This document shows positions 6,784-9,586 of a stretch of DNA of 58,612 nucleotides, in pieces. The notes under the pieces were generated by a model. It worked only from the letters and a program-made list of their open reading frames with translations. It did no database searches and was not told the DNA's origin. The position numbers were made by a program, and so were the translations under genes. Each line of letters starts with the position of its first letter. Position 1 is the stretch's first letter. Source of the stretch: Candidatus Fervidifonticultor octavus (lineage in GTDB: Bacteria > Sysuimicrobiota > Sysuimicrobiia > Sysuimicrobiales > Humicultoraceae); assembly GCA_031459655.1 (NCBI GenBank), contig JAVKID010000004.1, positions 1 through 58,612 on the forward strand, written 5' to 3'.

Positions 6784-7350
6784 TCAATCCTCCAGCGCTA
6801 CGGACACCGGCACCGGGTTGCGGAGAATGTCCATTACCGGGGACGTCTGCTGGACGTAGTTGCACAGTTCGACGATCTTGTCGCGCGGAGCGTCGGCCTT
6901 GACCCGGTACGAGAGCCGGACGTTCTGGAAGCCCGCCCGTGTCTGCTCGGAGAGTCCCAGGAAGCCGTGCAGGTCCAGGTCGCCCTCCACCTTGAACTGC
7001 AGGCTCTCGACCTTGATCCCCTGGGCGGCAGCGTTGTAGACGAACCCGACGGCCAGGCAGGATGCCAGGGCGTGGAGCACCGCCTCCACCGCGTTGGGCG
7101 CGGCGTTGCTCCCCAGCAGCACCGGCGGCTCGTCGCCCTCCAGGACAAACGGCCTGGTGCGTGAGGTATCTTCCTGTCCTGCACCGTAGAAACCCTGGAT
7201 CTTTGTCCGGGACCGCCCGCCATCCACCCAATCGCTGGTGGCCCGGAACGTGAACCGCGCCAGGCTCGGGTTGGATTTGATGGCGTTGACAGTCGCTACC
7301 AGTCGCTCCACGTTGACTCCGTTCAGGATTGTCTGCGTAGCCATGCTCAT
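6784..7350 (-). CDS. OsmC/Ohr family protein
   Basis: DEPPVLLG...NAVEAVLHALASCL...GDLDLHGFLG...TSPV; AGGAGG RBS upstream. Confidence 0.88.
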   Translation of the reverse strand: MSMATQTILNGVNVERLVATVNAIKSNPSLARFTFRATSDWVDGGRSRTKIQGFYGAGQEDTSRTRPFVLEGDEPPVLLGSNAAPNAVEAVLHALASCLAVGFVYNAAAQGIKVESLQFKVEGDLDLHGFLGLSEQTRAGFQNVRLSYRVKADAPRDKIVELCNYVQQTSPVMDILRNPVPVSVALED

Positions 7351-7381: not shown

Positions 7382-7744
7382 TCATCGCTTGACGGCGTCC
7401 GCCAGCTCGATCAAGACGTTGGGTTCGTCGCCGACGACCCATGCGTCATGTCCAGGATGCATGATGGCGACGTCGCCAGGACCAAATTCCATCTCCGTGC
7501 CATCATCCATCCGGATCCGCTGCCGGCCCGCCAGAAAGATCTTCACATGATACCGCTGGCAGCTCTCGCCACCTACAACAGGCTTCACGTGCGTTGACCA
7601 CCGCCAGCCGGGCTCAAGCGTCTCGCGATAGAATGTCAGCCCATTGAGGTGAATGACCTGGATCTTCCCTGTCTCGAACGGGCGCCGGACCTCGTCGGGT
7701 GTATCGAAGTTCTTCCCCATGATGGCGGCAGGCGCTTGCGACAT
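7382..7744 (-). CDS. Cupin domain protein
   Basis: FDTPDEVR...EPGWRWSTHVKP...CQRYH...PGHDAWVVGDEP; GAGGAGG RBS before ATG 7744. Confidence 0.85.
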   Translation of the reverse strand: MSQAPAAIMGKNFDTPDEVRRPFETGKIQVIHLNGLTFYRETLEPGWRWSTHVKPVVGGESCQRYHVKIFLAGRQRIRMDDGTEMEFGPGDVAIMHPGHDAWVVGDEPNVLIELADAVKR

Positions 7745-7798
7745 ACGTTGTCCCCTCCTCTCTCCGCGTGAGCCCTCCTCCGAAACACACACCGCCTC

Positions 7799-8161
7799 TC
7801 AGAACGAGACTACCCTGTCATATTCCGCCACCAGCGCCGCGAACTGCTTGGGCGTGATGAACTGGCCATTCTTGCCCTGCAGGTCTTGCTCGGTCACCCC
7901 ACGGGCGGCCGAACAGCCGCCTCAGACGTAGATCGGAATCTTGGACTCGATGACCTTCGCCATCAGGTCCTTCATAGGCGGCCAGCCCACCGGCACGATG
8001 GCGTTGGCCACGACCTCCTTCATCACCACCACCGCGTCGGCCACCAGGCCGATGGCAGCCTGGTGGCCGGCTTCCACGGCCCCTATGGCCGACAATAACG
8101 GCAGGACCGCCTTCGTGGGGTTCTCGGACCCGTGGGTCCCATTGAAGAACAAGCGGGCCAT
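7799..8161 (-). CDS. DsrE/DsrF-like family protein, probable selenoprotein (in-frame TGA at 7922-7924, U80-G-G-C83)
   Basis: Reading through the TGA gives 120 aa ending ...IPIYV[U]GGCSAARGVTEQDLQGKNGQFITPKQFAALVAEYDRVVSF. This is a complete DsrE fold with UxxC at the usual CxxC...RG site. Confidence 0.85.
7887..7915 (-). promoter_or_regulatory. Candidate bacterial SECIS hairpin
   Basis: mRNA 3' of the UGA reads UGUUCGG-C-CGCCC-GUG-GGGUG-A-CCGAGCA. It forms 7+5 bp with G-U pairs, and the apical loop starts with GU about 20 nt after the UGA. Confidence 0.65.
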
Positions 8162-8332
8162 CCGCGTCACCCCCCTCACCCCATCCTGAATTCATCAATG
8201 TCAGAGACGGGGCTGCGGCGCAGATTTATTGCACGACCGGAGGGCCAGGGTCCGGCCGGCCGGCGGGTCGGGCGAGCGGCCTGTCGACCCTCCGGGAAGC
8301 CGCCTGCACCACCTCCGGCGGTCAGGGCCTGC

Positions 8333-8378
8333 TTGACTTACTCATGCATTTGAGTAAAAATACTCATGGATATGAGTA
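8333..8378 (+). promoter_or_regulatory. Promoter region with two tandem TACTCA-N6-TGAGTA palindromes (putative operator)
   Basis: TTGACT at 8333; TTACTCA-TGCATT-TGAGTAA at 8338-8357; TACTCA-TGGATA-TGAGTA at 8361-8378. AT-rich island in GC-rich DNA. Confidence 0.7.
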
Positions 8379-9586
8379 ATCAGGCACATCCTGTCTTCAT
8401 CCGACCCCAGGCCCAGGTCTTGGCCACCCGGCTTGCCGAGCCACGGCGCCACCTCCAGGTGGTCGCAGGCCCCCGGCAGGTCGGCAAGACAACGTTGGTA
8501 CTGCAGGTGCTCACGACCTGGGGCGAGTACGCGCGGTACGCGTCGGCCGACGAGCCGACACTGCGGGATCGGGCGTGGTTGGTGGCGCAGTGGGAGGCGG
8601 CACGCCTGGTCGCCAGGCGGGCGGGCAGGCGCGGCGCGGTACTCGCGCTAGACGAGATCCACAAGATCCCTGGCTGGTCCGAGACGGTCAAAGGCCTCTG
8701 GGACGAGGACACACGGCAGCGCGTGCCGTTGCGCGTCGTGATCCTGGGCTCGGCTCCTCTCCTGGTGCAGCGGGGCTTGACCGAGAGCCTGGCCGGGCGG
8801 TTCGAGGTCATCCCGCTCGGACACTGGACGTTGGTCGAGATGCGGGAAGCATTCGGCTTCGCGCTCGACCAGTACCTCTTCTTCGGCGGCTATCCCGGAG
8901 CGGCGCCGCTGGCGCAGGATCCGGCGCGCTGGGCGCGCTACGTGAAGGACGCGTTCATTGAGACGACGATCGCGCGCGACGTGCTGCTACTCTCCCGCGT
9001 GGACAAACCCGCCCTCCTGCGCCAGCTGTTCGAACTGGGTTGCCACTTCTCAGGCCAGGTGCTCTCCTACACGAAGATGCTGGGGCAGCTGCAGGACGCG
9101 GGGAATACCACGACCCTGGCGCATTACCTGGAGTTGCTCTCCGGCGCGGGCATGCTCACCGGTCTGCAGAAATACGCCGGCTCGGTGGTACGCCGACGAG
9201 GCTCGAGCCCCAAGCTGCAGGTGCTCAATACGGCGCTGATGACCGCCACCATGGGCCTGAGGTTCACCGAAGCGCGCGCAGACCCGGAAACGTGGGGGCG
9301 CATCGTGGAATCCGCAGTCGGCGCTCATCTGGCCAACGCGGCCGCCGGCGGCGAGGGCGAGCTCTTCTACTGGCGCGACCGCAATCGCGAAGTAGACTTC
9401 GTGCTCCGACGCGGACGGCGGCTGGTGGCCATCGAGGTGAAGTCCGGCCGGCGGCGCCACACGCTGCCCGGACTGGAAGCCTTCGCTGACCTGTTCAGAC
9501 CCGCGCGCACTCTGATCGTGGGAGCCGACGGGGTTCCGCTGGAAGAGTTCCTGGCACGGCCCGCCACTCACTGGACGAGCCCATGA
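8366..9586 (+). CDS. AAA_14/DUF4143 family ATPase with C-terminal PD-(D/E)XK-like domain
   Basis: Walker A GPRQVGKTT, Walker B LALDEIH, LGS, ESLAGR, GGYP, C-terminal EVDF...AIEVKS. Confidence 0.88.
   Translation: MDMSNQAHPVFIRPQAQVLATRLAEPRRHLQVVAGPRQVGKTTLVLQVLTTWGEYARYASADEPTLRDRAWLVAQWEAARLVARRAGRRGAVLALDEIHKIPGWSETVKGLWDEDTRQRVPLRVVILGSAPLLVQRGLTESLAGRFEVIPLGHWTLVEMREAFGFALDQYLFFGGYPGAAPLAQDPARWARYVKDAFIETTIARDVLLLSRVDKPALLRQLFELGCHFSGQVLSYTKMLGQLQDAGNTTTLAHYLELLSGAGMLTGLQKYAGSVVRRRGSSPKLQVLNTALMTATMGLRFTEARADPETWGRIVESAVGAHLANAAAGGEGELFYWRDRNREVDFVLRRGRRLVAIEVKSGRRRHTLPGLEAFADLFRPARTLIVGADGVPLEEFLARPATHWTSP

Follow-up and report, generated by a model that had tools for sequence, protein, structure and literature searches.

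An in-frame UGA in a DsrE-like gene of a hot-spring bacterium from the phylum CSP1-3 (Sysuimicrobiota) is probably decoded as selenocysteine

Does the DsrE-like reading frame on the minus strand of this DNA end at the TGA at 7922..7924, where standard annotation would truncate it, or is that codon read as an amino acid in a longer protein? The window (the whole stretch of 58,612 nucleotides analysed here) is a contig (C88) of a metagenome-assembled genome of Candidatus Fervidifonticultor octavus (G000), an assembly of 2.89 Mb in 153 contigs that is 84.7% complete. A preliminary description of the letters had noted that the frame continues for 40 codons past the TGA, that these codons complete a DsrE fold, and that the TGA stands where the first cysteine of a CxxC..RG motif would lie; it took the gene for a selenoprotein of an already known kind that gene callers cut short. 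These points were borne out by the analysis below. We conclude, with a probability of about 0.92, that the product of 8161..7799 (minus strand) is a cytoplasmic protein of 120 residues with the DsrE/YchN fold, in which the UGA of codon 80 is decoded as selenocysteine (Sec).

The gene (7799..8161) begins with ATG at 8161..8159, runs for 120 codons and closes with a terminal TGA at 7801..7799. Homologues start at this ATG with MARLFF or MAKIL, and a purine-rich GAGGGGGG lies upstream of it at 8177..8170; a GTG at 8179, six codons further upstream, had been given as the start by the ORF lister, and no homologue matches it. Past codon 80 the frame stays open for 40 sense codons up to the terminal TGA. 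Translation with TGA read as U yields 120 residues with the motif I-Y-V-U-G-G-C-S-A-A-R-G-V, in which the in-frame UGA supplies the first residue of U-G-G-C and a TGT codon at 7913..7915 supplies Cys83, the second residue of the UxxC pair.

The Pfam DsrE profile (PF02635) aligns with residues 5–120 over profile positions 4–116 of 116 (E 9e-12; score 45.6 bits, cut-off 22.7), thus indicating that the last 40 residues belong to the domain. An AlphaFold2 model calculated from a 28-row alignment has a mean pLDDT of 98.1, with 120/120 residues at 90 or above. The 40 C-terminal residues make up three helices and two strands of this model, and residue 80 is predicted to sit at the end of strand 77–80, directly before helix 81–87. 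The best Foldseek matches in the PDB were YchN (1jx7), DsrE/DsrF of DsrEFH (2hy5), 3mc3 and TusD (2d1p), with TM scores of about 0.8. A phmmer search of the PDB with the single protein returned no match, and matches were obtained by profile search alone; NCBIfam holds no family for this protein.

Codon 80 was compared across 97 loci, which comprise 17 from the same phylum and the best 80 of 550 confirmed metagenome matches, the latter being a choice that biases the set toward relatives of the Sec-form query. The column holds TGA in 46 loci, Cys in 47 (TGC in 37, TGT in 10) and Ser in four, which form a distant SxxS subfamily. Wherever a match from the phylum carries a TGA, it falls in this column (13/13). 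Full-length homologues have Cys here, in the context CGAC(S/C)RARG, which agrees with the placement of the TGA at the first cysteine of the motif. Among the database homologues, one has Trp (TGG) and one has Ser at the position. Cys83 is nearly invariant in the alignment (A5), and is present in 46/46 TGA forms and 47/47 Cys forms.

Some copies keep the TGA column in a damaged frame. In L028/L036 (G002:C3:1814-2174) there is a frameshift near residue 57–60, and in L017 (JAVKIJ010000005.1, Ca. Fervidifonticultor quintus) only residues 51–95 match, in two frames. These degraded copies could be pseudogenes or assembly errors.

In bacteria, the SECIS element, for example that of E. coli fdhF, is an in-gene hairpin just 3′ of the UGA with a G/U that starts a small apical loop. 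A hairpin in this position is found at 7888..7914 (minus strand), or RNA positions 11–37 counted from the U of the UGA. It consists of a lower stem of six pairs (7914..7909 with 7893..7888), a C·A mismatch (7908/7894), an apical stem of five pairs (7907..7903 with 7899..7895) and the loop GUG (7902..7900), which begins 19 nt after the A of the UGA and is 3 nt long if the closing C–G pair forms. The preliminary description had reported a hairpin of 12 bp; the hairpin is real, and its stem has 11 pairs plus the mismatch. Placement and loop G/U are those of the fdhF type, as in the other loops found in the same genome (GGUCU in FdhA and GUC in SelD, beside GUG in the DsrE-like gene), whereas the sequence of the hairpin is unrelated to that in fdhF. 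An Rfam scan of 7600..8300 with E values up to 10 gave no SECIS family and six weak, unrelated matches, the best with E 0.4.

Taken alone, the sequence of this region in the window folds no better than its shuffles (z −0.01 over 81 nt; −1.56 over the 42 nt past the codon), and the case for the hairpin therefore rests on comparison, for which 42 distinct TGA-form sequences are available. The tree splits this set by clade: 12 sequences form a divergent clade with another hairpin, and covariation was assessed in the 30 TGA forms outside it, using the structure derived from the window sequence. With all 42 forms placed in the register of the window, 63.9% of cells are paired, a diluted figure. Within the 30, pair 18–30 is GC in 16, CG in 13 and broken in one, with column 30 falling on the third, synonymous position of a Val codon. 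Pair 17–31 is AU in ten, UA in eight, GC in three, CG in one, UG in one and broken in seven, including the window with its C·A mismatch; pair 21–27 is CG in 28 sequences and UA in the other two. In the loop, columns 23 and 25 are G throughout. The covariation score was 0.217, compared with 0.111 ± 0.016 in shuffles (0/500 reach the observed value) and no more than 0.102 when the register was slid, and RNAalifold recovered the same apical stem, with six pairs, from the 30 sequences unprompted.

The hairpin overlaps the codons of the conserved A-R-G-V motif, and its imprint can be read in codon choice. Under the apical stem, TGA forms encode Ala with GCC in 31/46, Arg +7 with CGN in 46/46 and Gly +8 with GGG in 43/46, whereas at the same conserved residues the Cys forms use AGR for Arg +7 in 26/47 and GGG for Gly +8 in only 15/47. 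At the protein level the TGA forms diverge much more than the Cys clade does, yet they vary much less at these synonymous sites. Folding of the 42 nt past the codon differs in the same direction, with a mean MFE of −17.7 kcal/mol, a mean z of −1.42 and a GC content of 0.69 for TGA forms (n = 42 distinct) and corresponding values of −11.6 kcal/mol, +0.42 and 0.67 for Cys forms (n = 40 distinct). The Mann–Whitney p value of 8e-8 for this difference overstates the independence of the data, because 46/47 Cys forms belong to one clade and the comparison of Sec with Cys forms amounts almost to one phylogenetic contrast. Judged from these alignments, the hairpin is conserved and covarying, and it constrains synonymous codons in TGA forms only.

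The divergent clade of 12 TGA forms (SH-aLRT 99; metagenome loci L064-L067, L069, L071-L075, L079 and L080) has the motif YI-U-G-[LM]-C-A-R-G-R-G-I and a different hairpin, CCCGC-GGUC-GCGGG, which is invariant within the clade. Its loop starts 15 nt after the A of the UGA, about 4 nt nearer to the UGA than in the main type, so that there is no single family-wide SECIS. A further hairpin, GGCGGC/GCCGCC, directly after the UGA (7904..7921, minus strand) had been put forward in the preliminary description as mutually exclusive with the first. It can be found in the window, but it is not conserved: 54.4% of cells pair in the 30 sequences, compared with 61.1% at a slide of +3, and it was rejected as a functional element.

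The genome offers its own evidence on Sec decoding. Among the sel genes named in the preliminary description, selD was identified with 372.8 bits at G000:C132:43543-44463 (−); it has an in-frame TGA of its own, at CAGUASKL, and a downstream hairpin with the apical loop GUC. FdhA (G000:C49:3312-5486, +) has a TGA at the canonical CARLUHAPSV site, followed by the hairpin with the GGUCU loop. The assembly, which is 84.7% complete, yielded neither selA nor selB nor tRNA-Sec; the top hits of the tRNA-Sec model in it were tRNA-Ser and tRNA-Leu. No tRNA-Thr or tRNA-Tyr is present either, so that the assembly is plainly incomplete.

A relative shows where the missing genes may have been. In 5/5 relatives with a TGA form that were checked, selA, selB and tRNA-Sec are clustered, and in a genome of the same genus (G006) selC-selB-selA lies at C1:21.5-27.5 kb. 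In BLASTN comparisons at 94% identity, G006:C1:12000-18338 matches contig C114 of the Ca. F. octavus assembly to its end (base 1), and G006:C1:32615-45000 matches contig C99 from its first base. What separates the two matches is C1:18339-32614, about 14.3 kb with tRNA-Sec, selB and selA, which places the selC-selB-selA stretch exactly between two contig ends and indicates an assembly gap. This is strong circumstantial evidence that selA, selB and tRNA-Sec of Ca. F. octavus were lost to that gap; we infer their presence rather than see it. Across the phylum, selA scored above cut-off in 76/94 genomes, a tally that includes the unpublished G016 and G024. It is present in 10/13 genomes with the TGA form, the three without it being G000, G075 (68% complete) and G057 (91% complete); selA is so common in the phylum that its co-occurrence with the TGA form is uninformative.

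Selenocysteine need not be the residue inserted. The UGA might be read through without selenium, as Cys, Trp or another amino acid brought by a near-cognate tRNA or by a non-Sec tRNA delivered by SelB, or TGA might be reassigned altogether. The single homologues with Trp (TGG) and Ser in the codon-80 column would fit such a reading, and the existence of Cys forms demonstrates that a thiol is functional here. Reassignment of the code is excluded by the use of TGA as the commonest stop of open frames of at least 400 codons in this genome (1281/2156) and at the end of the DsrE-like gene itself. Read-through by another tRNA would leave a dedicated hairpin at SECIS distance, conserved in TGA forms only, to be explained, together with the TGA codons that SelD and FdhA of the same genome carry at their canonical Sec positions, and we regard it as very unlikely.

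A second possibility is that the TGA is a true stop, and that the gene is a 79-residue stub or a pseudogene with a remnant of a frame downstream. Gene callers and databases agree on this stop: of the 120 best-matching homologues in the database, 92 have a length of exactly 79 residues, with 80 of these 92 ending in PIYV. As the preliminary description had anticipated for standard annotation, this pattern points to the same truncation being made repeatedly by gene callers. The failure to find selA, selB and tRNA-Sec in the assembly would also suit a stop. A remnant, however, would not preserve an open and conserved frame of 40 codons across 46 loci whose proteins are only 33–75% identical upstream, nor would it keep a covarying hairpin. 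Mean identity between the window protein and 17 other TGA forms is 0.56 over the 40 residues after codon 80 and 0.51 over the 79 before it, so that the part past the TGA is as conserved as the part before, which is not the behaviour of a dead remnant. Termination at codon 80 would also deprive the predicted fold of two strands and three helices, and copies that are really degraded look otherwise, being frameshifted (G002) or fragmentary (L017). A true stop is accordingly even less probable than read-through without selenium.

An assembly or sequencing error for TGC or TGT, conceivable in a metagenome-assembled genome of 153 contigs, is the least credible explanation, since the same TGA occurs in 45 other loci of other assemblies and the contigs of three DNA runs show no other letter at 7922..7924, one of them being a strain variant with nine differences nearby (these runs are possibly the source of the window and are thus not independent support).

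Decoding of the UGA as Sec agrees with what is known of the family. A DsrE-like family with a UXXC motif (Pfam02635) and a predicted SECIS is among the new selenoprotein families described from the Sargasso Sea (Zhang, Fomenko and Gladyshev 2005, PMC1088965), a DsrE-like protein is included in the selenoproteome of Desulfovibrio vulgaris (Zhang et al. 2006, PMC1794560), and a 2026 catalogue of prokaryotic selenoproteins lists the DsrE-like family, with functions that are largely uncharacterised (PMC13188914). The window gene shares with the published family the Pfam family, a UxxC motif with Sec in first place, Cys homologues and, immediately downstream of the UGA, a SECIS hairpin whose apical loop contains a G. 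It differs in coming from hot springs and from the phylum CSP1-3, and the likeness is one at the level of Pfam family and motif. By sequence, the gene is a genuine member of this DsrE-like (UxxC) selenoprotein family in CSP1-3 (Sysuimicrobiota). The main text of the description of the phylum mentions no selenocysteine, selenoprotein, selenium or DsrE (PMC11604079).

The closest structural relative is E. coli YchN (1jx7; Foldseek E 4e-7, TM 0.80), for which profile alignment sets C-K-T-C...GRG over the U-G-G-C...ARG of the window protein. YchN differs in having Cys at the Sec position, and sequence identity is only 17%; YchN is itself a protein of no known function. DsrE (2hy5) and TusD (2d1p) have the same fold as the window protein (TM 0.75–0.77). 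Cys78 of DsrE binds persulfide, and its position has been proposed as the active site of the DsrE superfamily (Stockdreher et al. 2012, PMC3397948). In profile alignments a Cys of 3mc3, of YchN (C-K-T-C) and of 3pnx falls in the column of Sec80, and from its position in the modelled fold Sec80 is probably equivalent to Cys78 of DsrE/TusD, 2hy5_A being matched by fold only. The DsrEFH and TusBCD complexes differ from the window protein in being heterohexamers, with DsrF/H or TusB/C, and in having Cys78 as a single active-site cysteine. None of the partner subunit genes (DsrF/DsrH, TusC/TusB) flanks the DsrE-like gene, whose neighbours are a cupin-like gene, an OsmC-like gene and an AAA_14/DUF4143 ATPase gene, and a second DsrE-family gene adjoins in 0/14 related loci scanned.

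A mechanism is proposed where SelB carrying Sec-tRNA(Sec) is recruited by the in-gene hairpin with its GUG loop 19 nt 3′ of the UGA, and selenium would enter the protein at codon 80. Sec80 at the strand end and helix N-terminus, with Cys83 one turn on, would fit a redox or sulfur-carrier site. If Cys78 of DsrE/TusD and the thiol oxidoreductases are taken as models, the selenolate would most likely attack a sulfane-sulfur, peroxide or disulfide substrate, and the intermediate could be resolved through an Se–S bond with Cys83. The protein may thus act as a selenol-based oxidoreductase or as a sulfane-sulfur acceptor that cycles through an Se80–S83 bond, and the presence of Cys83 as an additional, resolving cysteine hints at redox chemistry and not at sulfur relay alone.

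The surroundings of the gene offer little guidance on function. The cupin-like gene (7382..7792, minus strand, probable start ATG 7744) follows on the same strand after a gap of about 54 nt and may be co-transcribed with the DsrE-like gene; its matches to AraC_binding_2 (E 8.5e-4) and Cupin_3 (E 2e-3) lie below the curated cut-offs. Third on the strand is the OsmC-like gene (6784..7350; Pfam OsmC E 2e-18), which has no in-frame TGA. It scores 63.5 bits with the NCBIfam model NF041052, ‘OsmC-related (seleno)protein’, below the cut-off of 95, and, lacking an in-frame TGA, appears to be related, as a Cys form, to a different known selenoprotein family. Neighbours across 14 loci include methyltransferases in three, cupins in two, and OsmC, TusA, rhodanese-ArsR and AhpC in one each; a locus of the same genus has DUF1326 downstream, where the window has the cupin-like and OsmC-like genes. 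The neighbourhood is not conserved and gives no firm functional clue. A metatranscriptome contig from another study (X5) spans only 8047..8303, short of the TGA.

Further observations concern the flanking DNA. In the contigs of the strain variant, the 64 nt from the DsrE-like stop to the cupin-like start (7731..7796) are replaced by 74 other letters, which indicates that the intergenic spacer varies between strains. On the other side of the gene, the intergenic region that separates it from the divergent AAA_14/DUF4143 ATPase gene (8366..9586) contains a pair of near-identical palindromes, TACTCA-N6-TGAGTA, at 8339..8356 and 8361..8378, with 4 nt between them. The sole match to a sigma-70-like promoter (TTGACT, 17 nt, AAAAAT; 8333..8361, plus strand) overlaps with these palindromes, and the window contains two matches to the palindrome, compared with none in 100/100 shuffles. 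The pair looks like an operator pair for a regulator.

The tree also bears on how Sec and Cys forms are related. Rooted on the SxxS forms, it has the TGA forms as paraphyletic and 46/47 Cys forms as one nested clade, and the TGA forms differ in loop type, most having G-N-G at +20 and the clade of 12 a GGUC tetraloop. This could mean that Sec is the older state in the YchN-like UxxC clade and that, on at least one occasion, the SECIS was remodelled while Sec was retained, a reading that we consider possible but rather doubtful. Six Cys homologues of 146–150 residues (P0013, P0017, P0023, P0058, P0073 and P0083) have an N-terminal extension with R-R-S/T-F-L followed by a hydrophobic stretch, which we take to be twin-arginine (Tat) signal-like, and the TGA forms have no such extension with an RR motif. 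The Cys clade thus appears to be exported, and going by these N-termini it would seem that exported copies use Cys and cytoplasmic copies Sec. If true, the family would offer a compact natural example of Sec giving way to Cys in connection with export, and also of SECIS turnover under coding constraint.

The family, the motif and the recoding mechanism are already published, and the window gene is a new member; it raises no new question. Its practical value lies in annotation. This gene and most of its relatives are stored as 79-residue stubs, and protein catalogues thus lack their active site and one third of their fold. With codon 80 read as selenocysteine, as is probable, the DsrE-like protein joins SelD and FdhA in the selenoproteome of the phylum CSP1-3 (Sysuimicrobiota).
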